Shown: positions 340 to 64,000 of the stretch, piece after piece
Position numbering within the stretch: position 1 is the stretch's first letter
How the letters are laid out: each line of letters begins with the position of its first letter
Origin: a virus
Reading direction: 5' to 3' (one strand)
IMG/VR virus record: IMGVR_UViG_3300022538_000960
Location: 1 to 64,000 of that record
DNA length: 64,000 nt
Notes under the pieces: generated by a model
Told to the model about the DNA's origin: nothing
The model's input: the letters and a program-made list of their open reading frames with translations, nothing else
Databases searched by the model: none
Position numbers and translations under genes: made by a program

Positions 340-409
340 ATCCTTCTCCTTTCTGGAAATGCCAATATGCCATTTCCGGGAAAATCGTATCACCCCTTGA
401 CACAATGGG

Positions 410-850
410 TTACACGGAATTCCCTTGGTTTCTCCTATTTATTTTGCCACTCCTATGGCGATTGGTAATTAATTCACAGTAGTCGAGGAATTCATTGAGA
501 GTCCTACGGCCCTTGATTGTGTTACATTCATGACAAATTATGGCAATGTTGTTCTTATCAATGAACCTCTCGTTATCTAGCCGGTCAATGGTTGGGCTAT
601 TAGGCATAGTCCTTCCTTTACCCGGTGACCAATCAAGCTTGCACTTGCATAGATAACAATGATTCACGGATTTGATGATATCCGTAAGTTCATCAATTGT
701 TATCCGCATTTCGATTCCTCTCCTACGATGGGATCCAATTGTGCCTTGGGCCCAGGCTGTTCTTGGATGCGCCCGCTTCCATTTCCGACCGTATACTGTA
801 CTCTTTGCTGGCACAACTTTCCCATCAATTCTCTCAATCCTTCGTTTCAA
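410..850 (-). CDS. HNH/EndoVII-like endonuclease (family A, copy 1)
   Basis: CYLCKC...SPTIDRLDN...NIAIICHECNTIK; TTG start behind AGAAAGGAGG; paralogous to 9392 and 29537. Confidence 0.8.
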   Translation of the reverse strand: MKRRIERIDGKVVPAKSTVYGRKWKRAHPRTAWAQGTIGSHRRRGIEMRITIDELTDIIKSVNHCYLCKCKLDWSPGKGRTMPNSPTIDRLDNERFIDKNNIAIICHECNTIKGRRTLNEFLDYCELITNRHRSGKINRRNQGNSV

Positions 851-864
851 ACTATCCTCCTTTC

Positions 865-1006
865 TGATCTGAACTCTGATTTCAGAGTCATTGGCCCCTC
901 CCGGCCATCCCTCCCTTGGGAGGGGAGGGGATGGGTGTCGTATACAGGAGCGTATACGAATATCACTCGGTGGCAGGGGATTTGGTGGGTTTGGTGGCAG
1001 GGGCCA
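865..1006. other. GC-rich multi-hairpin / G-tract non-coding element
   Basis: Stems ACTCTG/CAGAGT, TGGCCCCT(892-899)/AGGGGCCA(999-1006), CCATCCC/GGGATGG and TCGTATAC/GTATACGA; four G-tracts at 918-935. Confidence 0.6.
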
Positions 1007-1288
1007 TCATACCCCAAGTAGATATCTTCGAGATTCTTCCACATCTTTGAATTCAATCCCCAGCTCCTTCAGAATCTCCACGCATCTACTATGAATATTC
1101 ACTCTCCATTGATCCAAGTCATTGAATTCTATGATGATAGGATCATTATACAGATCCCCATCAGAGAGCCACTCCTTCAGCTCAGGATATCTGATCTCCA
1201 TCTCCTCAATAGTCCTACAGACCCTCTTATATCCGGCTGTAGCAACTTGAAGATGCATCTCCAGAGTATCCCTATCCTTCCTGGTCAT
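1007..1288 (-). CDS. Hypothetical protein (93 aa)
   Basis: ATG 1288 behind GAAGGAG; ATGA overlap with the upstream small ORF. Confidence 0.7.
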   Translation of the reverse strand: MTRKDRDTLEMHLQVATAGYKRVCRTIEEMEIRYPELKEWLSDGDLYNDPIIIEFNDLDQWRVNIHSRCVEILKELGIEFKDVEESRRYLLGV

Positions 1289-1416
1289 GATCTCCTTCCT
1301 TTCACTTGAATTACTATGCACTCCTTGCAGAACTTCATAACTCCTAATGGAGTATTGACTTTGACAAGATCCTTCTCATCAAACTTCTTCATGCAAGTGC
1401 TACGTACGTCTTTCAT
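1285..1416 (-). CDS. Small hypothetical protein (43 aa, CxxC), not in ORF track
   Basis: AAAGGAGGTGAA then ATG; MKDVRSTCMKKFDEKDLVKVNTPLGVMKFCKECIVIQVKGRRS. Confidence 0.65.
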   Translation of the reverse strand: MKDVRSTCMKKFDEKDLVKVNTPLGVMKFCKECIVIQVKGRRS

Positions 1417-1421
1417 ACAAT

Positions 1422-1910
1422 TCACCTCCTTTCATATGTTTTCAAACATTTCGCCTTCTTTTCCATGAACTTATCTTTGATGTCCATCCACAATCCTTTT
1501 CTCCGTAATACTTCCTCCGCTATCTTCCACGCTTGGACTTCATCCTCAAATATGAGACCAACACCAAATCCATACTTCCTTGCTATCCTCTGCAGATGAT
1601 TCAGAATAGGATGGCGTCGTCCATATATTTGATGTCCCACCTCATGAGCAGCAATAATCATTGCTAATATCTTGCAGTCTGTCCGGATGGCAATCCATAG
1701 TTTCGACCCACTGAGTCCCTGATTTTCACCCAGATTATATAAATCAATGATATGCCTTGAAGCTTCCTCATCCTGAGTTAGCCTCCTCGCAATCCCTGGC
1801 TCAACAAGGTATTTTGTGGTGCCCTCACAACAGACAGCATCCACTGGAAATCCAGCGATGACCTTCTTAATAGCATCCTTAACATCCCTCCTAGCAGATC
1901 CAGTTATCAT
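1422..1910 (-). CDS. Zincin-like metallopeptidase domain protein
   Basis: HEVGH (HExxH) plus a downstream EDEVQAW third-ligand helix; SD AGGAGGTGA. Confidence 0.7.
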   Translation of the reverse strand: MITGSARRDVKDAIKKVIAGFPVDAVCCEGTTKYLVEPGIARRLTQDEEASRHIIDLYNLGENQGLSGSKLWIAIRTDCKILAMIIAAHEVGHQIYGRRHPILNHLQRIARKYGFGVGLIFEDEVQAWKIAEEVLRRKGLWMDIKDKFMEKKAKCLKTYERR

Positions 1911-1938
1911 CTATTTCACCTCCTCCTGTCTGTGATGC

Positions 1939-1969
1939 CGCTCAGTGCCCCTAGGAGCTCCACTGAGCG
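1939..1969. promoter_or_regulatory. Intergenic 9-bp perfect inverted repeat
   Basis: CGCTCAGTG(1939-1947)/CACTGAGCG(1961-1969); no U-tract. Confidence 0.45.
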
Positions 1970-1977
1970 ACGATCTC

Positions 1978-2301
1978 TTATTCATTGACTCTGAATCGGC
2001 TGAATACAGGCCAGCGGTCAACGGTTCCTTCGACCTCCCGGTCCTCGGTCTCAATCCAGACCCGAGTCAGTCCACTCACATCCCTGGCATATCCAATCAG
2101 ATCAAATTCTCCCGATATGATCTGACCATGATGCTCAATTCTGGTAATCCCTGGAATGACAACCTTCTGCATATGATTCTTAGCAAAGTTATTATCATTC
2201 CGGACGTGTCCTTCCCAGATTGCTGTGCCAGAGTCTATACGGATGGCATGATGACCCCGACTGTCCAGGGTCTTGCCATCCTGAATGAGTCTATTGCACA
2301 T
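1978..2301 (-). CDS. Miniature SRAP/YedK(HMCES)-like protein
   Basis: ATG 2301 behind AAAGGAGGTGAA gives N-terminal MCNR; W-x-G-x-x-R, VVIP..E and a C-terminal DRWPV. Confidence 0.5.
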   Translation of the reverse strand: MCNRLIQDGKTLDSRGHHAIRIDSGTAIWEGHVRNDNNFAKNHMQKVVIPGITRIEHHGQIISGEFDLIGYARDVSGLTRVWIETEDREVEGTVDRWPVFSRFRVNE

Positions 2302-2419
2302 ATTCACCTCCTTTCCTTTTGGTCAATTCCTCCCTTTCCTGCTCCTTGGTCGCCACCTCCAGTTCTTCAATCTTACTCAGATCGATGATCCGTTGGGCGT
2401 CCCTATCTATGAGCGGCAT
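2291..2419 (-). CDS. Small hypothetical protein (42 aa), not in ORF track
   Basis: AAGGAGGT SD then ATG; MPLIDRDAQRIIDLSKIEELEVATKEQEREELTKRKGGEYVQ. Confidence 0.6.
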   Translation of the reverse strand: MPLIDRDAQRIIDLSKIEELEVATKEQEREELTKRKGGEYVQ

Positions 2420-2439
2420 CTTACCTCCTTACTGCGACA

Positions 2440-2619
2440 TTATGAATAGGTTCTCTCTTCCTTCCGGAAGAATCCAATGATCCAGATGCCGGTCCGCAGT
2501 GCAAGACACACTGCAATGATCAGCATCCAATGATCTACAACAGCATACATGGCTTTCTCAATGGTATACCAATTGAATATACCATGGAGAATAGTTACAA
2601 GTTCTTCTGCTGCTCCCAT
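2440..2619 (-). CDS. Small membrane protein (59 aa), not in ORF track
   Basis: TTGAAAGGAGGTGAA SD; hydrophobic WMLIIAVCLALRTGIWIIGFF. Confidence 0.65.
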   Translation of the reverse strand: MGAAEELVTILHGIFNWYTIEKAMYAVVDHWMLIIAVCLALRTGIWIIGFFRKEERTYS

Positions 2620-2915
2620 ACTTCACCTCCTTTCAACGTCAACCTTAGTTGATTCTTCGTTCCTGTCTTCCGGAGAGACCGTATCTCATTAGCTACCATG
2701 GTCTTCATTCCACGTCCGATGAGAGGCTCCCCGATACATAGGACCCAGGTTCCAGGCTCCAGATCCGACCTGTCAGTAAATACCCTGACATAGTGGGATT
2801 CCTTGCCTCTTTTGGTTATGATCTGGATATAGGGCATATTCTTCCCATCCAGAACTCCAACCTGCTGTCCTCCAACTACCCCTCCAAAGAGGGAGATCCT
2901 ATTTGTGAACATCAT
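2595..2915 (-). CDS. Divergent OB-fold (SSB/PriB-like) protein
   Basis: NRISLFGGV...HYVRVF....LEPGTWVLCIGEP...MVANEI resembles the SSB beta-strand pattern; SD GAAAGGAGG. Confidence 0.45.
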   Translation of the reverse strand: MMFTNRISLFGGVVGGQQVGVLDGKNMPYIQIITKRGKESHYVRVFTDRSDLEPGTWVLCIGEPLIGRGMKTMVANEIRSLRKTGTKNQLRLTLKGGEVWEQQKNL

Positions 2916-2924
2916 ATCCTCCTT

Positions 2925-3053
2925 TCAGTTATAGATATAAGTATTGTTGATTGGATATGCCATGTCATGCATGATCTCGCCCTTCTCCAACCTCATCTTC
3001 CCATAGTTAAGACAGAATACGAAGATGAGGAACGGCGGTGATTTCCAATACAT
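2925..3053 (-). CDS. Small hypothetical protein (42 aa), not in ORF track
   Basis: TAAGGAG SD then ATG; MYWKSPPFLIFVFCLNYGK... Confidence 0.5.
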   Translation of the reverse strand: MYWKSPPFLIFVFCLNYGKMRLEKGEIMHDMAYPINNTYIYN

Positions 3054-3077
3054 CAGATCTCCTTAAGTTAGAAGGTT

Positions 3078-3131
3078 GCCATCCTATGGCTACTCTAGTT
3101 TACACTCTTAAGAAGAGGCCATCCTATGGCC
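3078..3131 (-). repeat. Two copies of the hairpin motif GCCAT-AGG-ATGGC
   Basis: gccatcctatggc at 3078-3090 and 3118-3130, both intergenic. Confidence 0.8.
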
Positions 3132-3141
3132 AATTTGATAA

Positions 3142-3351
3142 CTACTCACCATCAACATTCGGCTCAATCCTCGACTCAATCCTGGTATTGACGTTGTTCA
3201 ATACCTTGTGAGTCAGAGTCAAGCTCTTGAGAGTCAAGCGATTGGCTCTCGATGTCACTGCATGAGAAGCAGACATCACTGCCTTCTCAATCTTCGGCTG
3301 ATTCTCGTCACAGAAATCAGCAGCTTTCCTGATAAGGTTTCCTAACTGCAC
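3142..3351 (-). CDS. Hypothetical protein (69 aa)
   Basis: GTG start behind TTGAAAGGTGGTGA. Confidence 0.65.
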   Translation of the reverse strand: MQLGNLIRKAADFCDENQPKIEKAVMSASHAVTSRANRLTLKSLTLTHKVLNNVNTRIESRIEPNVDGE

Positions 3352-42444: not shown

Positions 42445-45162
42445 ATGCCTTTTAACGATAGCTCACTGAATCGGATAGGTTCAAACCTGATCGATTTCAA
42501 TCTTCGAGTTACTGCTCAGGCTGATATTGGAAAGAGTTTGCTGATCATTGGCACGTCTAGTGATGGACCTGTTAATGTTCCGATTAGAATAACGGAAATA
42601 GGTGGACTAGGCGCGGCAGCCGAGGTGTTCGGCGATGTTAGCAAAGGTTCTCTCCTGCATACAGCCATGGAAGCTAATCGTGCGAACAGGCGCGCAAAAG
42701 ATATCCGTCTCATGAGAATTAGTAACGGCAATGAAGCACAATTGTGTTTCAAAGAAGTTGATATTTCTGGTGAGTACGGAATATCTCCTCCAGCGAAAAG
42801 TGTTGACGAGGAATCTTATTATTGCACACCAGCTCCGGCAGTTCAAATGCCGGATGTGTTCTGTTTGACTGCAAAATACCCGGGTCAGATTTATAATCAA
42901 GTTTCGGTCAGAGCTGAAACCGGTGATGGCGACCTACATCCTGCGTCTCAATATATTGTGATTTATAATCCGAAAACTGCGAAGGAGTCCTGGTTTTCTT
43001 TTAATTACACAGATTTTGACGCAATTGTTGATTGCCATACTGTTGAAGACCTAGCTGATGCCATTAATGCGGATTCGAATTTGAATAGCATAATTATAGC
43101 AACAGTTAAAGAATTGAACGCAATTTTTGAACTCACCGCTTCTGATCCAAATGATCCAGCAAATACCAGGTGTGACCGGGGTGTTTCATATGACAGCAAC
43201 GGATATTTGAAGATCCAACTTAGTGAAATAACTCCAGTGTTTTATAATGATAATGCGAACTGCTGCATATCGAATGTTACTACCACTGGTGGAACTTGTA
43301 ATGTGCCCACGGCTGGTGATTTGATTGTGCAATTCAATGAGCTTTATGAGGTTCGTGAATATAAAGAATCAAATAAGAAACTCAAAGGACTTACCAACTG
43401 CATTCTTGATCATATTCCTGTAAAAGGTGTTGCTACGATTCCAACGACTACTCTGATAAAATATCGAAGTTTCACCGATGCCGAGTATGCCACCCCGCAA
43501 CTGATCATGCATTACAGAGGAATTGTCATAGCAACCATAACCGATACCGGGACTTTGGCTTTTGAGTTTGCATCCGAGATTTGCCCCGATGATGGCTATG
43601 TGGATGATCTATACTGTTTAGCGACCGATAGTATGTATATGGCAAACTATGGCGCTATTGGTGCCCTTCGCTCTAATGTTCAATTGGATGCTCTTCAGAC
43701 TACGTTCCATTTGTATGGAACAAAAAGTAGTCTTAAATATGAAATTCCATCTGGCCATTATAGGTGCGAATATGTCCCTGGAACTGAAATAGTTACAGTG
43801 AGTTTCTGTTCTGGGGAGGTTTTGCCTGCAGTTGGAACCGTACTGAGCTGCGATTATGATTCTTGCATTGAGGATTTGTCGTCAGAGGCTGGAACTTTGA
43901 CCGCCTGTTTGAACAGTAATGACTGGCATACATGGTTTGTGAGTGGAAAGACACTAACATTTGGTAAATCTCTTCCTGGAAATGCATCCTTCAGATATAG
44001 ATATAAAAATAAATTGGAAGAGGGAGCTGATTTTGTCGTCACGAGTTCGACTGGAAGAAAAAATGATATTGTCCAATTCACAAGTCTTGAAACTCAGCCG
44101 GAATTGAGCGGAGCTATGGATACTTCTGGAGTATTGCTTGGATTTGATTATATTTATCTTCCAGAGTGGATATCAGATGGTGCGGTTAAAACACTTACTG
44201 GTGGCACGAATGGAATTGATATGAGCAACTATGAAAAGTATGAGATTTTGCGCGAAGCTCTTGAAGTTGTCCAAGATTATCCAGTGTCATACATAGTTTT
44301 AGCTGGAATATATTTTGATGATACCAAAATCGTGTATGATCCAGAAACCGGCATTCCGCTGGAAACCAATGCTGGATTTCATACATTGCTTCATAATCAT
44401 CTTGAGGAATTGACCGGTTCGACCAGTGAGACCACTGGAATCATGTCGGCTAAACCCGCTGATGGAAATACGCCGGCAGATGTCAGAGCTTGGGTTGAAA
44501 GACTCACAGTGACAGATGCCAGCGATCCGAATCGGGCAGCGAATATCTTATCAAGTTTCGGAAGCAAATATATGACCATTGTCGGTGGAGAATTAATTTT
44601 CTCTAATGAGGCGGCATATATTCCTTATGCAAATACTACTGAAGGTTTGTATGGGGGACTGCTTTCCGCACTGCCAATAAATACGTCTCCGAGTAATAAG
44701 ACAGTGTTTGGGGTGACGAATGTAAGATATCTGATGTCCGGTGGTGAAAATGGTCAATTGGATCGATTGACAAGACTCAGACTTGTGACTTTCAAGCAAA
44801 AGCAAGATGGTGATATTGCCGTTGTTTCCGGAGTTACTGCTGCTCCATCTGGAAGTGATTATCAACGAGAAATGACCAGGAATACTGTGTTTGAATCGAT
44901 GGCGCTAATCCGTGCAGTCTGTGAACCATTTTTGGGTGAAGGTAATAGTCCACAAATTCGAGCTGCTATGGAAACTGCCATCAATTCGGCGCTCCAGAAA
45001 TTGGTCGAAATGAATCCTCCGGCTCTTAGTGAATATGATTTTACTATAAGATCTACCGCTGCTGATCAAGTACTAGGAATTGTAAACATTGATCTCGTGC
45101 TCGTTCCTGTGTTCGAGCTCAGAGAGATTCGCGTAACTGTAAAGTTGCGAGCTGAATTATAA
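42445..45162 (+). CDS. Tail sheath protein (905 aa, large insertion domains)
   Basis: LIIGTSSDGPVNVP N-terminus, LTGGTNG, and C-terminal EPFLGEGN...LVPVFELREIRVTV. Confidence 0.92.
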   Translation: MPFNDSSLNRIGSNLIDFNLRVTAQADIGKSLLIIGTSSDGPVNVPIRITEIGGLGAAAEVFGDVSKGSLLHTAMEANRANRRAKDIRLMRISNGNEAQLCFKEVDISGEYGISPPAKSVDEESYYCTPAPAVQMPDVFCLTAKYPGQIYNQVSVRAETGDGDLHPASQYIVIYNPKTAKESWFSFNYTDFDAIVDCHTVEDLADAINADSNLNSIIIATVKELNAIFELTASDPNDPANTRCDRGVSYDSNGYLKIQLSEITPVFYNDNANCCISNVTTTGGTCNVPTAGDLIVQFNELYEVREYKESNKKLKGLTNCILDHIPVKGVATIPTTTLIKYRSFTDAEYATPQLIMHYRGIVIATITDTGTLAFEFASEICPDDGYVDDLYCLATDSMYMANYGAIGALRSNVQLDALQTTFHLYGTKSSLKYEIPSGHYRCEYVPGTEIVTVSFCSGEVLPAVGTVLSCDYDSCIEDLSSEAGTLTACLNSNDWHTWFVSGKTLTFGKSLPGNASFRYRYKNKLEEGADFVVTSSTGRKNDIVQFTSLETQPELSGAMDTSGVLLGFDYIYLPEWISDGAVKTLTGGTNGIDMSNYEKYEILREALEVVQDYPVSYIVLAGIYFDDTKIVYDPETGIPLETNAGFHTLLHNHLEELTGSTSETTGIMSAKPADGNTPADVRAWVERLTVTDASDPNRAANILSSFGSKYMTIVGGELIFSNEAAYIPYANTTEGLYGGLLSALPINTSPSNKTVFGVTNVRYLMSGGENGQLDRLTRLRLVTFKQKQDGDIAVVSGVTAAPSGSDYQREMTRNTVFESMALIRAVCEPFLGEGNSPQIRAAMETAINSALQKLVEMNPPALSEYDFTIRSTAADQVLGIVNIDLVLVPVFELREIRVTVKLRAEL

Positions 45163-45184: not shown

Positions 45185-45838
45185 ATGCCAGTTGGATTGG
45201 AAACTAGTTCAGTAACACGAACATATACGTCTTTTACGGGCGCGGATCTTAAAGCCATCTTCCATAACATCGTTATAGCTGAACTCATTGGTATTTCCTA
45301 TACTATTACCAGAGAAATTGCTCCTATCTATACTACAGGTTCTGCTGATCCGAGAAGTTTTAGCAAAGGCAAAAGAGGAATAGCTGGAACCATGGTAATG
45401 CACAATTTTGATAGGCACGCTTTGAGGAACATCATGGATAAGTCCACGTATGTAGCGAAGAATGACGACTTTCAAAGTGTAGGTTGGAAGCCAATAGATG
45501 AAATCAGTGGAATCGCTGGTGAAGGAAGATTAGGGGTCAGACTTGCAAATCCAATATATGTTGATCAGATTCCGCCATTTGATATTACAATTGCGTATGC
45601 GAATGAAACAGGACAAATGGCAACTGAGAGACTGATGGGGGTGCAAATTCTGAATGAAGGTCATGGGATCTCTATCGATGATCTAACAAATGAGACTAAT
45701 ATGACCTTTGTGTGCAGACATATTCAGGGTATGATCCCGGCGGAAACCATTAGCCCGTCAACTCAAGACCTGGAAAGACCTAACTATTCACCGTGGCGCA
45801 ACCTCGGAGGTGGAGCATTTACAGCCCCCGGTGAATAA
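45185..45838 (+). CDS. Tail tube protein
   Basis: Directly after the sheath gene; SFTGAD, ISYTITRE, GKRGIAG and DQIPPFDI. Confidence 0.8.
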   Translation: MPVGLETSSVTRTYTSFTGADLKAIFHNIVIAELIGISYTITREIAPIYTTGSADPRSFSKGKRGIAGTMVMHNFDRHALRNIMDKSTYVAKNDDFQSVGWKPIDEISGIAGEGRLGVRLANPIYVDQIPPFDITIAYANETGQMATERLMGVQILNEGHGISIDDLTNETNMTFVCRHIQGMIPAETISPSTQDLERPNYSPWRNLGGGAFTAPGE

Positions 45839-46121: not shown

Positions 46122-46297
46122 TTACATGGAATTACGATAAGAAAGCTGATGTAATGTATATCACTTTCGGTAAACGACAAAAAGACAATATTGATCACCA
46201 AGTTGAAGGGGGTATATACCTCAGCAAAAGCATAAATAATAAAAAGTGGTGTGGTCTAACAATTGTTGATTTCAGCAAGCGATGTAATTCGACATGA
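46118..46297 (+). CDS. DUF2283-family protein, copy 2 (59 aa, not in ORF track)
   Basis: MITWNYDKKADVMYITFGK...WCGLTIVDFSKRCNST; ATGA overlaps on both sides. Confidence 0.75.
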   Translation: MITWNYDKKADVMYITFGKRQKDNIDHQVEGGIYLSKSINNKKWCGLTIVDFSKRCNST

Positions 46298-47172
46298 AAA
46301 TACAACATAGACAATATGGGAAGGTGGGAAATCTGCGGCCTGCGGCGTATGATTCTCCACAGTCTATAACCACATTCACTGGGGCTGATATTACAGCTGT
46401 CGCCTATATTCATGATCAGCTTAAAGTGTTGGGTGAATTACAGACGATCTCCTATTCGATTCATCGTGAGAAAAGTGCAGTCATGCTTTTAGGGAGAATA
46501 GATCCTCCATGTTTTACTCGTGGTCCTCGGACGGTGGCCGGATCATTAATCTTTACAGTTTTTGATCGGGAAGTATTGGAAGAACTTCTTAATACATATC
46601 CGGACGATACCGTTGATAATGATTTCAGTACGCTCCTATTGGATCAGATTCCCCCATTTGATGTAACAATTTCGTTTATGAATGAGGATGGGTATCTATC
46701 CTCTATGGTTATCTACGGACTTGAAATTGTTGATGATGGGCAGGTTATGTCGATCAATGATATGATCATAGAAAATGTTAAAGCATATAAGGCTCGCGGA
46801 ATCGACCTGATGTATAAGAAATCTGGTGGAGTCTGGACTCCAGCTAGAAAATTTAATCCATCTGCTCGATTCGAATCTCTGAATCCAATGAAAGTTAGGA
46901 ATATTGAGGGGGATTATATAAAATATGTTGAAGAATTGGATGGTCAAATCGATGTTCTATACGCGCAAATAGTGGTTCTTAGTTCCGAGAATACTAGACT
47001 TGAGCTTACGGGCGGAAGCCAAAATGATATGGATGCAAATGAATTGGAAATTGTGAAATTGGAGGCACAAATTGAAAATTTGAGAAGAGAAAAGAGAACC
47101 ATAGAAGTTAAACTTGGAATTGAGGAAAGAAGGAAGGATTTAGGTTTATTGGGAACGAGCTGGGTTTCATAA
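46294..47172 (+). CDS. Tail tube-like protein 2 with C-terminal coiled coil
   Basis: TFTGAD, LQTISYSIHRE, GPRTVAGSLIF and DQIPPFDV; paralog of 45185. Confidence 0.75.
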   Translation: MKIQHRQYGKVGNLRPAAYDSPQSITTFTGADITAVAYIHDQLKVLGELQTISYSIHREKSAVMLLGRIDPPCFTRGPRTVAGSLIFTVFDREVLEELLNTYPDDTVDNDFSTLLLDQIPPFDVTISFMNEDGYLSSMVIYGLEIVDDGQVMSINDMIIENVKAYKARGIDLMYKKSGGVWTPARKFNPSARFESLNPMKVRNIEGDYIKYVEELDGQIDVLYAQIVVLSSENTRLELTGGSQNDMDANELEIVKLEAQIENLRREKRTIEVKLGIEERRKDLGLLGTSWVS

Positions 47173-47285: not shown

Positions 47286-48605
47286 ATGAATAAATTTCGT
47301 AGTGGAGAAAAATTGTCATCCATTGATATAACCAGTGAACGGAAGTTTGATCTTGATCAAATCCGATTAAAGCAGTTACGTAAGCTGAGAGAATATTACA
47401 CCGAATTTTATTCCGGGCAACAGGTAAAGGTGTATATTAACGATGTTCTTCTTGATTTAGTGGCTATTGCGTGGAATGCTACACAGAATAAGATGCCGGT
47501 GTATGGATTTGCCTCGCAGCTCTTTGATGCCGTTGCCGAAGGAACATTTATTGTCAATGGGGAATTTACATTAGCCTTCAAAGATGTTGCAACAATGCAT
47601 TTCATAAATAGACATATCAAAGGTCAGGAATATGATGCAGAGACTTATGCCGCAAATATTAAAAAACTGCGGGCACTTCCTAGCGCGTCGGTCATACATG
47701 AAATGGGACCGGGTTCCGTTGGACTTACCCCGGTGGTTGCTCAAGTTCAGGAACTTACAATAGATGAAGAAGGGAATGTTGTTCCAGACGGAACCAAGGG
47801 CAAAATATACGTATCAAAAAATCGAGTAGAAGATCTTTTTGGTGGGCCAGATAATTTTGATGATCTATGTGATGCGATGGAGGATTCTATTTGGGGGATC
47901 GGAGACTACTATAAAAATCAATATAAAAGGCCTGACGAAATTGATAAGGAACAGAGATTTGATTCATATGGAATAGGCTATGATGTTGCAGGAAAAGGGT
48001 TTAATTTATTAGTCACATATGGTAATCCAAATAATTCTGAATCTGAACATACATTGAAAACGCTAAATGATGTGCATATCCTGGGTAGTGCCCAATCTAT
48101 AGATCCAAATGCTGGATTCATTATCGAGACATATTCATTCTTTGCTAGGAATATGGATCAGCCCATGTCCAACTATAAGGGATTTGATAAACCGAATATT
48201 CCTACAGACAGAATTGGAAGGAGCCCAACTGTTCTTAATTTTACAGTTCCTCTCACCGCATTTGATCACTGCAATAGGGAATTTTTTGAAGAGCCAACAA
48301 GCATGATTCTGTCAATAAAAGATAAAATTTGGGATTTAAGGAGGGAGGACAAAAATTCAAAAACTTATTTTATAAGGTCGGAAATATTAATTCCAAGTGA
48401 TTGGACCGTTGATAATCCAGAAAATGAAACTAGAATTATTGAAAAAGGCCCCGTTACCAGAAAGAATCTTCTCAATTATTTTGCCAGCAAAATACATGAG
48501 GTTATTAAAGATGCTGCCAGGGCAACTGAGACCACTTTTTCATTCGTTACTAATATTTCATCTTCTCTTAAAACTGAATTTATCATAAATGTGTCGATTG
48601 AGTAA
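47286..48605 (+). CDS. Tube-like / baseplate hub protein
   Basis: FYSGQQVKVYI, K.PVYGFAS..FDAVAEG..IV.G and IETYSFFAR. Confidence 0.6.
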   Translation: MNKFRSGEKLSSIDITSERKFDLDQIRLKQLRKLREYYTEFYSGQQVKVYINDVLLDLVAIAWNATQNKMPVYGFASQLFDAVAEGTFIVNGEFTLAFKDVATMHFINRHIKGQEYDAETYAANIKKLRALPSASVIHEMGPGSVGLTPVVAQVQELTIDEEGNVVPDGTKGKIYVSKNRVEDLFGGPDNFDDLCDAMEDSIWGIGDYYKNQYKRPDEIDKEQRFDSYGIGYDVAGKGFNLLVTYGNPNNSESEHTLKTLNDVHILGSAQSIDPNAGFIIETYSFFARNMDQPMSNYKGFDKPNIPTDRIGRSPTVLNFTVPLTAFDHCNREFFEEPTSMILSIKDKIWDLRREDKNSKTYFIRSEILIPSDWTVDNPENETRIIEKGPVTRKNLLNYFASKIHEVIKDAARATETTFSFVTNISSSLKTEFIINVSIE

Positions 48606-56265: not shown

Positions 56266-58524
56266 ATGAAAATTTCTGCGATAAACCTGACCGTTAATTC
56301 CATCAAGGTTTTGGAGAGAAGGTATCTTAAGAAGGACAAAAACGGAAAGGTCGACGAAACCCCAGAAGAGCTCTTCTGGAGGGTGGCTGAGGTTATATCT
56401 TCTGCGGATAAGGATTATGGAGCTACCGAATCTGAGATAAAGAAGGCCAAAGAAGAATTCTATGAGATGATGGCAAAGTTGGAATTTATGCCCAACTCCC
56501 CCACCCTGATGAATGCGGGTAGACCTCTGGGCCAGCTCTCCGCCTGCTTTGTCATACCGATCGAAGATACCATGGAATCCATCTTCACTGCGGTGAAGGA
56601 TACTGCCCTGATTCACAAAAGCGGAGGCGGAACCGGATTTTCATTCTCAAGATTAAGACCCAAAAATTCGCCTGTGGCATCCACCAGCGGGGTGGCTTCG
56701 GGTCCCATATCTTTCATGAAAGTTATCAATGCCGCAACTGAAGCGGTCAAGCAGGGAGGGACGCGACGTGGAGCTAACATGGCAATATTGAGGGTGGATC
56801 ATCCGGACATTCTGGAGTTTATCTGTTCCAAGGACGATCTGAAAGAACTTACCAATTTCAATATCTCTGTGGCTGTCACCGATGCCTTCACGAAGGCGAT
56901 GGAAAAGGATAAGTACTACGATTTGATCGATCCCCGCACCGGAAAAGAATACAATTTGAACGATAAACCAGTTCGGTATAGGGCCAAAGAGATCTTCGAC
57001 TTGATCGTGGAACATGCCTGGAGAACCGGTGAACCAGGGATGATGTTTCTGGATAAGATGAATCAGGGCAATCCCATTACCAAAGTTGGATTATATGAAT
57101 CCACCAACCCCTGCGGAGAGCAGCCCCTTTTGCCTTACGAAAGCTGTAACTTAGGATCCATCAATCTCTCCAAGATGCTTAAAGTCAGTGGTCAGTCGTC
57201 AGTGGTCAGTGATCAGACCCCACCCACCACTGTTATGGAGGTGGATTGGGACAAATTGGAAACCACGGTCAAAAAGGCGGTTCATTTTCTGGATAATGTG
57301 ATAGACGCCAACAATCATCCGCTTTCAGAAATTAAAAAGAACACCGAAGCCAATCGGAAAATCGGCTTGGGGGTGATGGGTTGGGCAGATATGTTGGTTC
57401 AGTTAAGGATTCCATATAATTCCACTGAGGCGGTGAAGTTAGCTGATAAGGTGATGGGATTTATCAAAGAAAAATCTCACCAGACTTCGTCTGAATTAGG
57501 AAAAGAAAGGGGCAACTTCCCCAATTGGGAGAAAAGCGTCTATTACGAGAAAAAAATCCCCATGCGCAATTCCACCGTTACCACCATTGCGCCGGCAGGA
57601 ACCATCAGCATCATCGCTGGTTGTTCCTCCGGGATTGAGCCGCTTTTTGCCATCTCCTACATCCGCACGGTGATGGACAACACCAAACTGGTGGAGGTAA
57701 ATCCCTTCTTTGAAGAAGAGGCGAAAAAGAGAGGTTTTGACACCAAGGATTTGATGAAGAAAATTGCCCAGAAGGGATCGATTCAGGATCCCGATTTCAT
57801 CGGGATTCCCGAGGACGTCAAAAAGGTATTTGTGGTTTCTCATGACATAGCACCGGAATGGCACGTGCGAATGCAGGCCGCTTTCCAGAAGTATACGGAC
57901 AATGCAGTTTCCAAGACTATAAACCTCCCCAACCAAGCCACGGTGGGGGACGTGGAGACTGCTTATAGATTAGCATACCAATTGGGTTGTAAGGGGGTGA
58001 CCATCTATCGGGATGGATCCAGAGAGGCACAAGTGTTATCCACCAAAAAGGAAAAAGAAAAAGAGCAGGAGAAAATCGCTCCCATGGAGAGACCGGCTTG
58101 CCTTTCCGGCATAACTGACAAGATTAAAACCGGATACGGGAATCTTTATGTGACCATCAACAGCTTAAATGGAAAGCCTTTTGAGGTTTTTGCCCAGATA
58201 GGAAAATCCGGATATTCCACCATGGCCGACACCGAAGCCATCTGCAGGTTGATCTCCCTGGCGCTTCGGAGCGGGATAAGTGTGGAAAAGACCATCGAGC
58301 AACTGATTGGAATTGGCGGCGCATCTCCCATCTATCAGGAGGGCGGACTGGTCATGTCCATCCCGGATGCCATTGCCAAAGTTTTGAATAAGCATTTTGG
58401 TAATGGCCAAAATGCCAATCACGATATAGATCTTACTATGGAATTCTGTCCCGACTGTGGAGCTAAATTGAATCGTGATTCTGGGTGTATTGTCTGCACT
58501 CAATGTGGATTTTCAAAATGTTAA
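56266..58524 (+). CDS. nrdJ: Class II (adenosylcobalamin-dependent) ribonucleotide reductase with TSCPD/Zn-ribbon C-terminus
   Basis: PNSPTLMNAG, LSACFV, GGGTGF, TNPCGEQPL, TIAPAGTIS, KGVTIYRDGSR and C-terminal CPDC..CTQC. Confidence 0.93.
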   Translation: MKISAINLTVNSIKVLERRYLKKDKNGKVDETPEELFWRVAEVISSADKDYGATESEIKKAKEEFYEMMAKLEFMPNSPTLMNAGRPLGQLSACFVIPIEDTMESIFTAVKDTALIHKSGGGTGFSFSRLRPKNSPVASTSGVASGPISFMKVINAATEAVKQGGTRRGANMAILRVDHPDILEFICSKDDLKELTNFNISVAVTDAFTKAMEKDKYYDLIDPRTGKEYNLNDKPVRYRAKEIFDLIVEHAWRTGEPGMMFLDKMNQGNPITKVGLYESTNPCGEQPLLPYESCNLGSINLSKMLKVSGQSSVVSDQTPPTTVMEVDWDKLETTVKKAVHFLDNVIDANNHPLSEIKKNTEANRKIGLGVMGWADMLVQLRIPYNSTEAVKLADKVMGFIKEKSHQTSSELGKERGNFPNWEKSVYYEKKIPMRNSTVTTIAPAGTISIIAGCSSGIEPLFAISYIRTVMDNTKLVEVNPFFEEEAKKRGFDTKDLMKKIAQKGSIQDPDFIGIPEDVKKVFVVSHDIAPEWHVRMQAAFQKYTDNAVSKTINLPNQATVGDVETAYRLAYQLGCKGVTIYRDGSREAQVLSTKKEKEKEQEKIAPMERPACLSGITDKIKTGYGNLYVTINSLNGKPFEVFAQIGKSGYSTMADTEAICRLISLALRSGISVEKTIEQLIGIGGASPIYQEGGLVMSIPDAIAKVLNKHFGNGQNANHDIDLTMEFCPDCGAKLNRDSGCIVCTQCGFSKC
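57184..57216 (+). repeat. Heptamer tandem repeat (GTCAGTS) inside nrdJ
   Basis: GTCAGTG GTCAGTC GTCAGTG GTCAGTG ATCAG, encoding VSGQSSVVSDQ. Confidence 0.85.
57788..57806. repeat. Short palindromic element inside nrdJ
   Basis: ATCCCGAT-TTC-ATCGGGAT, encoding PDFIG. Confidence 0.75.
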
Positions 58525-58536
58525 TGGGTGATTCTA

Positions 58537-61500
58537 ATGCCAATTATTTATGATCCGGAAGAAGATCAGTTTGTAGATCGGCACGGATATTTATTTCCAA
58601 CTGTCCTATTAGGTGGCGGGTTCCTGGCTTGGAAAAAATATTATGGATCTCCACAGCTTGGAAGGAAATTTTCGCCCCGAGCATTTGTAGGATTTGTTAA
58701 AGATTTAGACCCTCAAGATTATCTAAGGAAATATCTTACAAGACCAGACAAGCCAGAACTCCCTCTCCAACGTAGGTTGGTAGAAACTGCGGTAGAATAT
58801 GAAAAAAGCAAATCAGTAATAGAATTTCTCACCGATGCCGATATGAAAACTATTCACTCAATCGGCTCAGCTCTTCCGACTCCGATGAAAGCGGAAGAGA
58901 TAGAATTCAAGCGGCAGGTAATTAGACAATTTAATCCGGTAACTTATGACTTGGTAAGATCCAATGTGGAAAAAACCCAGGAGGTATTCAACGAGTTGCT
59001 TGAAAATGTTGAAGAATCTAAACATTTACAAAGTGTTCTTAAACAACAGCTTGAACGATATAGATTTAAAAAATCTCGCCTATTGATATATTCGAAATTT
59101 TCTGAAATTATCAGTCCGGAAATGCTGAAGAGCGAAGCTGGACATCCTGTTTTGATGAGACAGCTATGGGATATGCAGAAGAAACAAGTTCAGGAAGCTA
59201 GGAGATTGGCGCAGATATTACAAAATGAAACTCCGGAAACTATAGTAAACTTAAAGATTCCAAAAGTTTTGGAGCGCATTGATCCAACCACTATCATAGA
59301 CGAGAGACGAGCGAGACTCCAACCCGCAGGGAAAACGATTAGTGATACGGGCATCAAGTTATCTTATACAAATTATAAATCATTTCTTCAGGAACTCCGA
59401 AGAGCGAGGGTCGATTCCAAAGCTGTGGCTGCAATCGAATCTATAGACCCATTACTAAGGCAGCATCTAAATGAACTTGCCCATACAAAACCTCGAATTA
59501 CGTATGCCCTTCGCGATAATGCATTCAACTTACAGGCCGTGATTAAATTATCTATTCAAACTAAAGAGGAAGGCAAAAGGGAGATCATTAATCTGAAAAT
59601 TCCTCTTGCTCGTGGTGGGAGATTAAGAATCAATGGGACCGGGTACATCCCTCAGAGATACCGAGGCATTAAGCCGCTTATCCCAGAAATAGAACGAATT
59701 GAATCTGATATCTACGAGTCGGTGATTCGTAATTTGAATAAGAGATTCAAAAGTGAAGTTTGGCATAAAGTTATGGATGGAGATGCCCGTGGAGGTGAAC
59801 GATCCATTAATGCATTGATTAAGGAACCGATTGATGAAAGATTAATCATCGAATCGGGGCGCCCAGTCCATGATTTCATTGAGCAGAATATAATCCAGGA
59901 TGCTAGACTCGGCTATCTGTCGCCTACACGTGGATTCAGAACTGAAGATGAGCGGCGTGTGGTGCTTGATCGATTCAAAAAAATGCAAAAACTTAAATTA
60001 CTTCTATTGGAGGGTGGAGGAAAGTTAAAATTACCAAATAGATATGCATTTATAGATTTTGAAACATTCGGAACAAAAACGAATTACCTGCCGCATCAAG
60101 TGACCGTAGGTATAATTGAAAATGGCGCAGTCGTTGATTGGTATACAGGAAAAATCGATCCTCGAAGCATTAATACCAACTATGCTTTTCCGGAAGTTGA
60201 TTTGAAGTTGTCATTCAAGGGAAAAACGAGAGAACAAGTTATGAAGGAATTCGATGAAATTGGACAACCTATTAGTAAGATTCGGAGAGATTTGGAAGAA
60301 TTCCTGCGGAAAAATGCCAAAGGAGGAAAGCTTCCAGTTGCTGCTTGGAGTGCTGGATTCGATGTGGATCGGGTAATGGGGCAGCAATTCTTGGGGGCCA
60401 AAGCATATTTGGGAGAAACTTGGGATCCGATGGATCTCCAAAAAGCTATTGATCCAGATGTTCAAGCTTCAGTTTCTCTTAGATCCGTTGGGCGATCTCG
60501 TAAAATCTTTGTGCCAACTTCTTCGAAAAAAGATTTGATTCTTAATAAAAAAGTTATTGAATTATTTAAAAAGAATCGCAATTTAATGTCTATCTTGAAG
60601 GACAAAGATCCTGGATTTCATGGTAAGTTAATGAAGGCAGTTTCCGAAAAACAAATAAGGGATCTGGTAATGCACGAGGCATCAATTGATGTACTTGTAG
60701 CAAATAAGGTCTTTCAGGATATTGCGAAAGATATTAATTTGCATTCATCTGTAGTGATGCGTGATTTGAATGCAATGTTATTGTCTTATCATAGAGCCCT
60801 GACCCGCTCAATAAATCCAATAGGTATCAATCACTGGACAACCAGAGCACTGGGATCTAATTTCCCCTCACTTTCTCCAGCTCAAATTTTGCAAGGTAAA
60901 TTTACAAAATTTGATATCAGAGATTTAGCTCCCCTTACTAGGTTAGGCTTAGATCCAACACGGCCATTTTATCAACAATGGGTTTCAGCGCACTTAATTA
61001 CCAAAGATGTTCCCGACTTGATTACGAAAACGTATAAGAAGATTGCTGATAAGCATGGCGAGCTCTTTAAATCGATAGATACATTAACAATTTTTAATCC
61101 ATTAACTGCAGAAAGTGCAGGCCTAATAGATTTTCAGGCTGCGGATGAAATGGCAATTAAAATGGGGACAAAAGAGATTAGAATTCCGCATACGGGCAAA
61201 TTGAAGCTCATACCCGAACTCAGAGAATATTTTGAACAAATAAAATCAACAAGGAGTCCGAGAGAGCGTGAAATAGTTTTATCTAAATTAAGACAGAAAA
61301 TGGCGAAGTCATATCAAAAGGGATCTCATTTCCAGGAATGGTTGCCTGGGTATACCTTACTTGGAGAAGCAGAAGGATTTACATTTAATACCTCGACTCC
61401 ATTGATGTCAACAATCGAGAACATTGAATACAATAATGAGAACAAGGAAATAGCCATTCGTCTCCAGACGGCGAGCCGTCCTGAAAAGTATGGGCATCCA

Positions 61501-64000
61501 ATGAAAGTTTTTGCCCGTGAACATAAGGGGATGTTGACCCCTGTAGAGGGACTGAGATCCATTACATGGGTTGATGCGGTTCTTCGTAAAGATCTTGTAA
61601 AACGCGGTAGGATGTCATTTATGTTGGGGCAAATTCAGAGATTAACCAGGAATTTTCAAGCAATTCATTCGAAATTAACCCCAGCTCAGACATTTCAATT
61701 TTTCGAAACAGTTAAGACTTTTGTAAGTAAGATAAACTCGATGGGGGGAATTAAATTAGATTGGCAAGTTAACCGAGGCAAACTTCAATTTATAGATGAA
61801 ATAACAGGTAAAGAGTGGCAAAAATTGGATCTTGGGAAAATCGAAAAAAACTGGTTGCAATTTTCCGAAGGTGGATGGGTTAAATTCATGAAAGAATATT
61901 CCCAAAAGATCCGGCATATGATGATTTCGTTTGGAGTTAAATATTCTAGGCATGATCCTCGCCTGCCCTATTGGACTCAGGGCCAAATTGAATCGATGTT
62001 ATCGACTGAGTGGGGTCGACGATTCCCCAAAAAGTTAGTGTTTGCTGATCTGTCCCGGGCTGAACAAAATGCATTCCGAGAGAAAATAGAGGTAGAAATG
62101 CATGATCAGCTATCAAAAAGTGAATTATCCAAGTTTTTTACCAAAGCAGAATTAGAGCGATGGAAATCCGGAACCTTAATGAAAGGTCATCTTTCTTTGA
62201 TTCAGCTCTTTGGTGGTTCTTGGGGGGTTTTAGAAGTTACCCCAGCATCGAGGGCATATGAGGCCGGCGAATTATACGCAAAGGGAACCGATGTTGCAAT
62301 TCCTCGTCTAAGTGAATTAGTTATATCAGGACCAGTTGGACAAAGATTGGCGCGATCATTTACCCCCCAGCAACGTGATATGATGAATTATATGTCAAAC
62401 ATTCAACCCCTTTTAAGATATGGTGTTTTGCCGGAATCCCATTATCCGATTGTAAAAGCTTCGGAAATAAATCTTGACCCTATGACAACTCACTTGGGAT
62501 TTAAGCAAGAAGTTGGGATTATAGAAGATAAATCCTTCAGAATTAAGTGTGTTGAAACTGGAGAAATTTTTAATTCTCTCGAAGAAGTTCCTGGCCGTTA
62601 TTTGAAACAATATACACTGAGGCCCATGGGCATGAATGCCTATATGCATCCTAAAACTTTGGAATCATTGTACGGACAGCAGCCAACCATAGCAGAATTT
62701 AATATAGGGAAGAAGACAGTTTATGTTCCCAGACCAGCATTATCATTTATTCGGGGTGCCCCAGCGAAAGTTACAAAGAGTGGGGACCCTTATACAATAG
62801 TTGGGAAGGAAATCCAAACATTTAAAAACCTCTTTGTGATGGCTGCCGATTATAAGTTAATCGAAGATAAAGAGGCGAAGAAACTTGCCGAACGGGAATT
62901 TTTTGCAAGAGTTGAAGATTATAGAAATATGTTATTGACCGATAAGTCCGCCTATATAAAACTTACCAAGCCGACTATTCCAGGAGTACAAGGTAAAATT
63001 TCCATGGCATTCCCTCCAGGAATGGCCAAGGCATTGGGATTGCCGCAGGATATGTTCGCTCATATAACTACGGGATTTGGAGTCCAGGGTGTGTCCATGG
63101 AGTCGATTGGAGAGGAGTATTTTAATAAGGCCATGGATGCTCACCAGATAAAAATCGGGCCAGACACCGGAAAATTTAGGGGTGGCACAGGATCGATTTA
63201 TCCAAATAAATTGGCATTTAGAGAGTCCCTTAGTAAAGGCGAGGAACTGCTGGCTGGGACCCTTATTCGAATCCCACCAGAAAGTAAATTCGCAGCTTTT
63301 GATACGTTAATTGACGTCAGAAGGGATCAAGCCGCTGGGATGCGTCTTCAGCTTAGAGAGGCTATGATGGCCCATTTCGATTTTGACGGGGATATTGCGC
63401 CACTAGGATTTGCGAATCTTACACCGGAAGACCAGGAGCAGGTTTTGAAGGATCTTGTGAATAAGCAACATATTGATCGCGAGGCACATAAAACATTAGC
63501 TGAAAGAATAAAAAAGTTGCATGCCAATGTTCTTGAATATGAAACCAGCAAAGATGCTGCAACCAAGAAGCAACTTGTCAAAGAGCTTGAGCAAATTCAA
63601 GAACTCGAAAAGACAATGAATGTCAATGTCTATGGCCAGGGTATTTGGGTGAGGGAAGCCAAGCCGGGAGTAACTCCAAAGGAAATTAAATTAGGAGTTG
63701 GCGATGAGATGAGGTTCCGGAAGATGAATTTGCACCAGTTTATGAAGGGATTACCATCTATTGATCTTCCAGGAAAGTTGATTAGCCTTCCGGGTGAAGA
63801 ATTGGAGCTACATCTTTCTAATATGCTTACAAAGACGGCTACAGCGTATTCTTATCGAGAAACAATGAGAATGAGAGCGTCCGGCAGATTATTTGGCGGA
63901 AAGTTGACCCAACAATACTTGGATTTGTATGATCAACTGGTTGGGAAAGTTACCGCATTCAAAAAAATTCCGCTTGCGGATGCAGAGGCTTTGACTCGGG
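58537..64000 (+). CDS. Giant single-chain two-barrel (DPBB) polymerase with fused DEDDh exonuclease; putative virion RNA polymerase (partial, >1821 aa, not in ORF track)
   Basis: Stop-free frame from ATG 58537. Exonuclease motifs FIDFETFG (60055), AWSAGFD (60361) and HEASID (60673-60690). Polymerase motifs MKVFAREHKG (61501), LIRIP (63268) and HFDFDGD (63373-63393). Confidence 0.8.
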   Translation, partial: MPIIYDPEEDQFVDRHGYLFPTVLLGGGFLAWKKYYGSPQLGRKFSPRAFVGFVKDLDPQDYLRKYLTRPDKPELPLQRRLVETAVEYEKSKSVIEFLTDADMKTIHSIGSALPTPMKAEEIEFKRQVIRQFNPVTYDLVRSNVEKTQEVFNELLENVEESKHLQSVLKQQLERYRFKKSRLLIYSKFSEIISPEMLKSEAGHPVLMRQLWDMQKKQVQEARRLAQILQNETPETIVNLKIPKVLERIDPTTIIDERRARLQPAGKTISDTGIKLSYTNYKSFLQELRRARVDSKAVAAIESIDPLLRQHLNELAHTKPRITYALRDNAFNLQAVIKLSIQTKEEGKREIINLKIPLARGGRLRINGTGYIPQRYRGIKPLIPEIERIESDIYESVIRNLNKRFKSEVWHKVMDGDARGGERSINALIKEPIDERLIIESGRPVHDFIEQNIIQDARLGYLSPTRGFRTEDERRVVLDRFKKMQKLKLLLLEGGGKLKLPNRYAFIDFETFGTKTNYLPHQVTVGIIENGAVVDWYTGKIDPRSINTNYAFPEVDLKLSFKGKTREQVMKEFDEIGQPISKIRRDLEEFLRKNAKGGKLPVAAWSAGFDVDRVMGQQFLGAKAYLGETWDPMDLQKAIDPDVQASVSLRSVGRSRKIFVPTSSKKDLILNKKVIELFKKNRNLMSILKDKDPGFHGKLMKAVSEKQIRDLVMHEASIDVLVANKVFQDIAKDINLHSSVVMRDLNAMLLSYHRALTRSINPIGINHWTTRALGSNFPSLSPAQILQGKFTKFDIRDLAPLTRLGLDPTRPFYQQWVSAHLITKDVPDLITKTYKKIADKHGELFKSIDTLTIFNPLTAESAGLIDFQAADEMAIKMGTKEIRIPHTGKLKLIPELREYFEQIKSTRSPREREIVLSKLRQKMAKSYQKGSHFQEWLPGYTLLGEAEGFTFNTSTPLMSTIENIEYNNENKEIAIRLQTASRPEKYGHPMKVFAREHKGMLTPVEGLRSITWVDAVLRKDLVKRGRMSFMLGQIQRLTRNFQAIHSKLTPAQTFQFFETVKTFVSKINSMGGIKLDWQVNRGKLQFIDEITGKEWQKLDLGKIEKNWLQFSEGGWVKFMKEYSQKIRHMMISFGVKYSRHDPRLPYWTQGQIESMLSTEWGRRFPKKLVFADLSRAEQNAFREKIEVEMHDQLSKSELSKFFTKAELERWKSGTLMKGHLSLIQLFGGSWGVLEVTPASRAYEAGELYAKGTDVAIPRLSELVISGPVGQRLARSFTPQQRDMMNYMSNIQPLLRYGVLPESHYPIVKASEINLDPMTTHLGFKQEVGIIEDKSFRIKCVETGEIFNSLEEVPGRYLKQYTLRPMGMNAYMHPKTLESLYGQQPTIAEFNIGKKTVYVPRPALSFIRGAPAKVTKSGDPYTIVGKEIQTFKNLFVMAADYKLIEDKEAKKLAEREFFARVEDYRNMLLTDKSAYIKLTKPTIPGVQGKISMAFPPGMAKALGLPQDMFAHITTGFGVQGVSMESIGEEYFNKAMDAHQIKIGPDTGKFRGGTGSIYPNKLAFRESLSKGEELLAGTLIRIPPESKFAAFDTLIDVRRDQAAGMRLQLREAMMAHFDFDGDIAPLGFANLTPEDQEQVLKDLVNKQHIDREAHKTLAERIKKLHANVLEYETSKDAATKKQLVKELEQIQELEKTMNVNVYGQGIWVREAKPGVTPKEIKLGVGDEMRFRKMNLHQFMKGLPSIDLPGKLISLPGEELELHLSNMLTKTATAYSYRETMRMRASGRLFGGKLTQQYLDLYDQLVGKVTAFKKIPLADAEALTR

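Follow-up and report, generated by a model that had tools for sequence, protein, structure and literature searches.

Genes and features at the locus

The window, that is, the whole 64,000-nucleotide stretch of DNA analysed here (positions 1 to 64,000 of the IMG/VR virus record IMGVR_UViG_3300022538_000960), contains near its right end a gene for a very large protein, called giant 2 below, in which a DEDDh (DnaQ-like) 3'-5' exonuclease domain stands N-terminal to a putative polymerase core. Coordinates 1-64,000 refer to the window, and the end of the giant 2 gene, the following gene for giant 3 and a baseplate gene were read from the 98,001-bp contig (Table 1). The open reading frame (ORF) of giant 2 lies in frame +1 and has an in-frame GTG at 58528 upstream of its ATG, so that the protein measures 2,014 amino acids (aa) from the ATG or 2,017 aa from the GTG. 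Residues are counted from the GTG throughout, and the copy in the protein database (P0002) begins at the ATG. Several small antisense ORFs overlap the exonuclease region; they have no support and are taken as chance.

Table 1. Positions of giant 2, its domains and motifs, and the neighbouring genes
Feature	Coordinates	Strand	Basis or remark
Giant 2 gene	58537..64000, continues past the window to contig position 64581	+	ORF list, translation, contig read
N-terminal hydrophobic Gly-rich segment GYLFPTVLLGGGFLAWK	58585..58635	+	Direct sequence reading
DEDDh (DnaQ-like) 3'-5' exonuclease domain, aa ~500-760	60025..60807	+	AlphaFold2 model, Foldseek/VIA-align, PF16473
ExoI YAFIDFETF (D510, E512), strand beta-1 of the model	60043..60069	+	Sequence and AlphaFold2 model
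ExoII VAAWSAGFDVDRV (D612; AGFD), start of the helix after beta-4	60337..60375	+	Sequence and AlphaFold2 model
ExoIII MHEASIDV (H716-x4-D721), start of the last core helix	60670..60693	+	Sequence and AlphaFold2 model
Candidate beta-type barrel motif GHPMKVFAREHKGML (K993, K1000), tentative	61492..61536	+	Conservation
Candidate beta'-type barrel ELLxGxxIRxPxE ... HxDxDGD (R1581, P1583, D1618, D1620, G1621, D1622)	63244..63402	+	Conservation and spacing
Tail sheath gene	42445-45162
Three tube-like paralogues directly after the sheath gene	45185-45838, 46294-47172, 47286-48605		All match phrog_9206
Giant 1, 2,019 aa	50197..56256	+	Cas4/RecB-like nuclease match near aa 1477-1578
Class II ribonucleotide reductase (nrdJ-like)	56266..58524	+	Pfam Ribonuc_red_lgC, E 9e-137
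Giant 3, 2,093 aa	Contig 64802-71083 (L002:802-7083), beyond the window		N-terminal M15 peptidase, Pfam E 2e-9
Baseplate wedge gene	Contig 72734-74038

Motifs and predicted fold of the exonuclease domain

All three exonuclease motifs, with their acidic residues and the histidine, are found in frame +1 at the place where an earlier note, made from the sequence alone, had located them. The histidine of the ExoIII pattern H-x4-D, by which the "h" subgroup (DEDDh) is defined, is present as H716, and a helical insertion of about 70-100 aa separates ExoII from ExoIII. We predicted the structure of aa 485-770 with AlphaFold2 from an alignment of 7 rows, and it turned out that the model has the canonical DnaQ topology (an RNase H-like alpha/beta fold), with a mean predicted local distance difference test (pLDDT) score of 81.1 and a predicted template modelling (pTM) score of 0.79. 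In a Foldseek search against the PDB, 78 matches reached an expectation value (E) of 1e-3 or less, and the top ones are all DnaQ-like, including Cas2-DnaQ, Orn, the DinG exonuclease, REXO2, TREX1/2, ExoI and the PolC exonuclease. With VIA-align, REXO2 was superposed at Z 14.8 and a root-mean-square deviation of 3.1 Å over 170 of its 183 residues, and 50 DEDDh/DnaQ-like entries, aligned over nearly whole chains, had a Z of 13.5 or higher (range 13.5-14.8), among them REXO2, Orn, ERI1/3'hExo, Cap18, RNase T, the DinG exonuclease, Cas2-DnaQ and Pol III epsilon. Besides, the named matches in the viral fold library BFVD are solely DnaQ-like or DEDDh exonucleases.

Profile searches point in the same direction with low scores. 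The domain matches the Pfam family of Rv2179c-like 3'-5' exoribonucleases (PF16473; E 8.4e-5, 22.8 bits), and in PHROGs giant 2 matches phrog_192, "DNA polymerase exonuclease subunit" (E 0.003), while its NCBIfam matches are far under the cut-offs. For the three other full-length lineages of the family (see below), nearly all Pfam, NCBIfam and PHROGs matches are DnaQ-type, weak and at the same position; the models concerned are the DinG-type DnaQ exonuclease, an epsilon-like 3'-5' exonuclease and phrog_192. Matches of other types are few, and these are weak and located elsewhere in the protein. A comparison by hhalign of the exonuclease sub-alignment with E. coli DnaQ and Orn was null; with single sequences as targets and an effective number of sequences (Neff) of 2 in the query, this comparison is too weak to be telling.

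The earlier note had read the region as an intact DEDDh exonuclease, a reading tied to a DnaQ/RNase T fold and to conserved catalytic residues, and both are borne out by the model and by the alignment described below. Its suggestion of a profile search succeeded in part, as DnaQ-type and PF16473 matches were obtained, but under the gathering score. Taking predicted fold and motifs together, we regard it as confirmed that 60025-60807 encodes a genuine DEDDh 3'-5' exonuclease domain, which is probably catalytically competent and, in terms of the model, is a member of the DnaQ-like superfamily outside every curated family. In the two-metal mechanism, D510, E512, D612 and D721 would bind Mg2+ and H716 would serve as the general base.

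Conservation of the domain and retention of the fusion

To collect homologs, we ran phmmer with aa 470-1669 of giant 2 exhaustively against 1.84 billion representative proteins. Only five proteins were returned, namely the query, P0005 (2,000 aa, 34% identity), P0006 (2,055 aa, 30% identity) and two fragments. Close relatives with 84-89% identity (P0003, which is L005; P0004; and L004) came from word-based and contig searches, and L008 is a divergent full-length member (2,015 aa, 29% identity). The family comprises four full-length lineages (the window clade, P0005/L009, P0006 and L008) and a fifth one represented by the fragment P0008. Three further look-ups brought nothing: a tblastn search against 50,697 phage records gave no match, the locus of P0006 was not found in IMG/VR, and the ESM Atlas returned nothing usable for the core part or for the fragment P0007.

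Proteins of the four full-length lineages are about 2,000-2,055 aa long and align end to end over both the exonuclease and the polymerase-like region. As far as these alignments tell, the fusion, whose survey among homologs the earlier note had proposed, is retained in every homolog found. D510 and E512 are invariant in the four full-length lineages, and H716 and D721 in all five, which are merely 27-41% identical to each other. At ExoII, the window clade and the fragment P0008 (NAKFD) have Asp, and P0005, P0006 and L008 have Glu (NFE; NFEK/R). In coronavirus nsp14, whose motif is written DEEDh (a term that occurs in PMC7654266), a Glu at this position does not preclude activity. Generally, 15% of the columns of the family alignment are invariant, whereas the 50-aa stretch containing ExoI has 14 invariant positions over the four lineages, equal to the best stretches of the core; compared with the overall level, such conservation suggests an active site under purifying selection and not a domain in decay.

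Two hydrophobic segments of giant 2 are conserved as well. In the N-terminal Gly-rich segment, the family alignment shows no variation at G26, G28 and A31; the segment falls under the Kyte-Doolittle cut-off that we applied for transmembrane helices, and its membrane role is putative. The other segment, about 90 residues before the C-terminus, is kept in all four full-length lineages.

The polymerase-like core

The earlier note took the host protein of the exonuclease for a two-barrel polymerase. For this, we compared the C-terminal part of giant 2 with E. coli RNA polymerase and with two virion RNA polymerases, gp96 of Thermus phage P23-45 and gp66 of Cellulophaga phage phi14:2. The core contains DFDGD at aa 1618-1622, of which DxDGD is invariant, and IRIPP 37 residues upstream of it, so that the signature can be written hhRxP-x34-DxDGD. 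Six signature residues (R1581, P1583, D1618, D1620, G1621 and D1622) are invariant in the four lineages. The distance from the Arg to the Asp, 37 in giant 2, is close to that in E. coli beta' (35), P23-45 gp96 (38) and phi14:2 gp66 (39), and each of these four proteins has two hydrophobic, strand-like stretches in the interval from one motif to the other. When giant 2 was shuffled, the combined motif appeared in 16 of 20,000 sequences (8e-4). Besides, the signature passes the filter "[RK]xPx{20,100}DxDxD" of Chaban et al. (PMC10770324). A tentative counterpart of the beta-type barrel is PMKVFAREHKG, in which P, K and K are invariant and which is similar to E. coli beta GDKMAGRHGNKG; it stands 620 aa upstream of DxDGD and has neither fold nor profile support.

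Motif, gene context and precedent together make it fairly likely that the core of giant 2 is a two-barrel RNA polymerase. The exonuclease had been described in the earlier note as fused inside the polymerase. It is indeed inside the polypeptide, N-terminal to the putative core, but an insertion within the polymerase fold itself could not be shown.

Genome context

The contig belongs to a phage, with genes for terminase, portal, protease, major capsid protein and tail sheath. Its completeness is estimated at 38% (CheckV-type), and the phage is probably jumbo-sized for this reason; we describe it as an uncultured, contractile-tailed jumbo phage. Three giant genes occupy the slot of the tape measure between the sheath/tube genes and the baseplate genes, and L004, L005, L008 and L009 show the same succession from giant 1 through giants 2 and 3 to the baseplate. 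The PHROG matched by the three ORFs after the sheath gene is annotated as "major head protein", and by position these ORFs are more like tail tube or tube-related paralogues.

For giant 1, the nuclease match is to PHROG 1706 (E 3e-7) and also to PHROG 2506. Its C-terminal third is best conserved, with 44-46% identity to L008 and L009, and its length varies from 2,019 aa here to 2,410 aa in L004 (2766-9995) and at least 3,331 aa in L005 (L005:3-9995), whose open frame reaches back to the very beginning of the locus. Between giants 1 and 2 lies the ribonucleotide reductase, a class II (B12-type) enzyme that contains a TSCPD domain as well as a C-terminal zinc ribbon and is separated from both giants by gaps of only 3-9 nucleotides. 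It is missing from this place in L004, L005, L008 and L009, where giants 1 and 2 abut, so the reductase must have entered the tail-slot cassette recently and is peculiar to this phage; in L009 and L006 there is only a TSCPD-like ORF of 130 aa, further downstream. Giant 3, in addition to its M15 peptidase, has lysin-like PHROG matches near aa 1760-1944 and two hydrophobic segments; within the cassette, it is the strongest candidate for a true tape measure or for a protein that pierces the cell wall.

At the other end of the window, positions 49-3351 carry small leftward ORFs on the minus strand (GC skew -0.23), diverging from the long rightward operon that takes up the remainder of the contig, and this block may be an early-gene cluster. 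An argument for resection at the entering end that was based on these leftward genes at the left contig end was dropped, since the ends of a contig that is about 38% complete are not genome termini.

Proposed function of giant 2 and alternative explanations

We propose, with a probability of roughly 0.6, that giant 2 is a virion-delivered single-chain two-barrel RNA polymerase with an exonuclease that processes 3' ends at the onset of infection. Giant 2 would be carried in the virion and enter the host cell like gp96 and gp66, its C-terminal two thirds would be a very diverged single-chain two-barrel RNA polymerase transcribing the first phage genes, and the exonuclease would act on nucleic-acid 3' ends for this polymerase when infection starts. 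The proposal is supported by the context, that is, the slot between sheath and baseplate genes, the neighbour with an M15 peptidase, the hydrophobic C-terminal segment and the synteny. In the version that we prefer, the exonuclease would resect the 3'-ended DNA strand at the end of the entering genome or at nicks, and resection would expose the single-stranded template that such polymerases favour. Template preparation is favoured because gp66 and QDE-1 prefer single-stranded DNA (ssDNA) and some crAss-like virion RNA polymerases carry a fused superfamily 1 (SF1) helicase, which would be a different route to ssDNA. In a second version, the exonuclease would trim the 3' ends of transcripts or of backtracked RNA, which would amount to proofreading or restart, analogous to the nidovirus exonuclease ExoN. 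That exonuclease and polymerase are mechanistically coupled within one injected polypeptide, either as an enzyme making its own ssDNA template or as the first two-barrel RNA polymerase with DnaQ-type trimming or proofreading, is a more tentative idea, possible but on balance doubtful.

Several results weigh against this proposal. On the exonuclease side, the PF16473 match misses the curated gathering score of 27, and sequence searches of the PDB, run with the domain, with the full protein and with the profile of the family, gave 0 matches and hence no DEDDh protein of solved structure; nor can the substrate be read from the model, because DNA- and RNA-acting neighbours tie in Z. As for the polymerase, DxDGD by itself turns up in 1.7% of shuffled proteins as long as this one, and it is similar to calcium-binding loops. 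For aa 900-1850, the AlphaFold2 model, again from a 7-row alignment, reached only pLDDT 47.2 and pTM 0.27; Foldseek against the PDB and a wide VIA-align search with it gave chance-level rows only, and at this pLDDT such searches say nothing on the fold. Comparisons of the family by hhalign with gp66, the gp96 N-terminus, E. coli RpoB and RpoC and a crAss-like virion RNA polymerase profile of 41 sequences were null (probability <1%), and Pfam, PHROGs and NCBIfam gave 0 RNA polymerase matches in any giant 2 lineage. The missing Pfam match is uninformative and such profile tests have little power, because the validated polymerases gp66 and gp96 get no Pfam match to RNA polymerases either. Of the two-barrel host put forward in the earlier note, then, the invariant and correctly spaced motif stands, but the core gave no usable fold prediction and the profile comparisons stayed null. 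Finally, the contig, at about 38% completeness, does not define the genome ends or the early-gene layout.

Among the alternatives, the exonuclease might be independent cargo of an ejected multi-enzyme carrier and degrade nucleic acids of the host or of its defences at entry, for which host DNA or RNA ends, nucleic acids of retron or abortive-infection systems and linear oligonucleotide signals are candidate targets. The nearest structural neighbours of the domain do include the nanoRNases Orn and REXO2 and Cap18, an exonuclease associated with the cyclic-oligonucleotide-based antiphage signalling system (CBASS); the nuclease match of giant 1 and the M15 peptidase of giant 3 make the cassette resemble a set of delivered enzymes; and crAss-like virion RNA polymerases carry assorted domains (NADAR, AlkB-like, helicase). 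Exonuclease and polymerase-like region are nevertheless joined in one chain in every lineage found, and no evidence of an anti-defence role emerged, although no search for matches to PADLOC or anti-defence families was made; we consider the cargo explanation unlikely.

It is likewise improbable that giant 2 is no polymerase and instead a tape-measure or ejection protein with an exonuclease only, in which DxDGD would be a calcium-binding loop or a structural element. Such a protein would fit with the double-psi barrels being without fold or profile evidence, with the presence of DxDxD in a number of other ORFs for tail and baseplate on this contig, and with the 620 aa between the beta-type candidate and DxDGD, which is much farther than in gp66 as read here. 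Its difficulty is the complete signature: hhRxP is invariant at a distance typical of RNA polymerases, the combined motif is rare in shuffled sequences, the six residues are all invariant against 15% of columns overall, and RNA polymerases have been discovered through such a motif before (PMC10770324).

A third explanation, very unlikely in our view, is that the exonuclease fold has been retained as a non-catalytic structural or nucleic-acid-binding module. The change of the ExoII Asp to Glu in three lineages, the large insertion between ExoII and ExoIII and the sub-threshold Pfam score could be taken in this sense, but an acid or His is present at each of the five catalytic positions even though the lineages are 27-41% identical, and coronavirus nsp14 is an example of activity with Glu at ExoII. 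The last one is most improbable, namely that giant 2 is a DNA polymerase or primase of the two-barrel type, as the earlier note had mentioned as an option, and is proofread by its DEDDh domain. DNA polymerases do usually have DEDDh proofreaders, and the two-barrel core of PolD polymerises DNA, but the giant 2 gene is part of the tail module, with sheath genes on one side and baseplate genes on the other, and its product has the conserved hydrophobic C-terminal segment. A replicative role is unlikely because of this position and because the contig of an 84%-identical relative has its own family B DNA polymerase (in an open frame of 1,065 aa).

Novelty and significance

In full-text literature searches we found no description of a two-barrel or virion RNA polymerase fused to a DEDDh/DnaQ exonuclease, and a comparative review of jumbo phages and a 2025 paper on an aquatic jumbo-phage lineage do not mention an exonuclease-RNA polymerase fusion. 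While the class of virion RNA polymerases is known, the conserved DEDDh exonuclease added to a tail-associated, probable two-barrel RNA polymerase appears to be new. To our knowledge, virion-delivered two-barrel RNA polymerases have been studied experimentally in only two phage groups, neither of which has a nuclease. Two-barrel RNA polymerases otherwise cleave RNA with their own active site. If active, the domain would provide either a new way of template preparation for polymerases that prefer ssDNA or the first exonucleolytic 3'-end editing in this class.

At their curated thresholds, Pfam, PHROGs and NCBIfam all miss the giant 2 family, and in jumbo phages annotated without a tape-measure gene and without an RNA polymerase, very large ORFs that lack annotation may encode both. 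If the coupling were true, it would echo the DEDDh partners of the eukaryotic RNA interference (RNAi) polymerases and would be an undescribed strategy for starting phage transcription.

Comparison with known systems

As an exonuclease, the domain agrees in fold and motif positions with the DnaQ-like enzymes Orn/REXO2, ERI1/3'hExo, RNase T, Pol III epsilon, the N-terminal exonuclease of DinG, Cas2-DnaQ and Rv2179c/RNase AS. It differs from them in its marginal sequence similarity, its insertion, its host (a tail-module protein of 2,014 aa) and the ExoII Glu of three lineages.

DEDDh exonucleases tied to RNA polymerases are known from other settings. Eukaryotic RNAi polymerases, which are two-barrel enzymes related to the single-chain two-barrel RNA polymerases of phages, have DEDDh partners, namely QIP with QDE-1 and ERI-1 with RRF-3. 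These pairs and ExoN of nidovirus nsp14 have in common a DEDDh/DEEDh exonuclease tied to an RNA polymerase and serve as an analogy only, as they are separate proteins or belong to the right-hand polymerase class, unlike giant 2.

The crAss-like virion RNA polymerase gp66 of phi14:2 has a solved structure (PDB 6VR4; Drobysheva et al., bioRxiv 10.1101/2020.03.07.982082). It transcribes single-stranded or denatured DNA and not native duplex, and QDE-1 also prefers ssDNA (bioRxiv 10.1101/2020.03.07.982082). Like giant 2, gp66 belongs to a size class of about 2,000-2,200 aa, is encoded in a block of giant proteins, which are virion proteins in its case, and has hhRxP...DxDxD at similar spacing; it is a single chain with a beta-type followed by a beta'-type barrel, the arrangement for which giant 2 has candidate motifs. 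The differences are that gp66 belongs to a podovirus lineage, has the motif DFDID, shows no profile similarity to giant 2 and has no DEDDh domain detected. Among the 120 gp66 relatives listed, the precomputed Pfam column contains no exonuclease family. Some of these relatives carry other domains, such as an SF1/PIF1-type helicase (PF05970, PF13604, PF13245), NADAR (PF08719), an AlkB-like 2OG-Fe(II) oxygenase (PF13532) and PF25176; P0063, P0078, P0083, P0106, P0111, P0113, P0115, P0119 and others are examples. Accessory nucleic-acid enzymes fused to virion RNA polymerases thus seem to be common.

The virion two-barrel RNA polymerase gp96 of P23-45, which is fused to the tail tape measure and whose polymerase activity has been shown, was recognised solely from its conserved DFDGD, as this giant protein of the virion is otherwise dissimilar to RNA polymerases (Chaban et al. 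2024, PMC10770324), and it was proposed to transcribe the first phage genes on entry (PMC10770324). Giant 2 resembles it in being a giant protein of the tape-measure slot with a conserved DFDGD, membrane-like segments and a metallopeptidase in the protein or in a neighbour. P23-45 is a siphovirus with a very long tail, and gp96 has no exonuclease domain detected; giant 2 comes from a contractile-tailed jumbo phage with three giants in the slot and has a DEDDh domain before the core, and polymerase activity has been shown for gp96 only. The likeness is one of organisation and not of family, as the hhalign probability between both is 0.1%. In conclusion, the system closest to giant 2 by organisation is gp96 of P23-45, and by protein size and class it is the crAss-like gp66.

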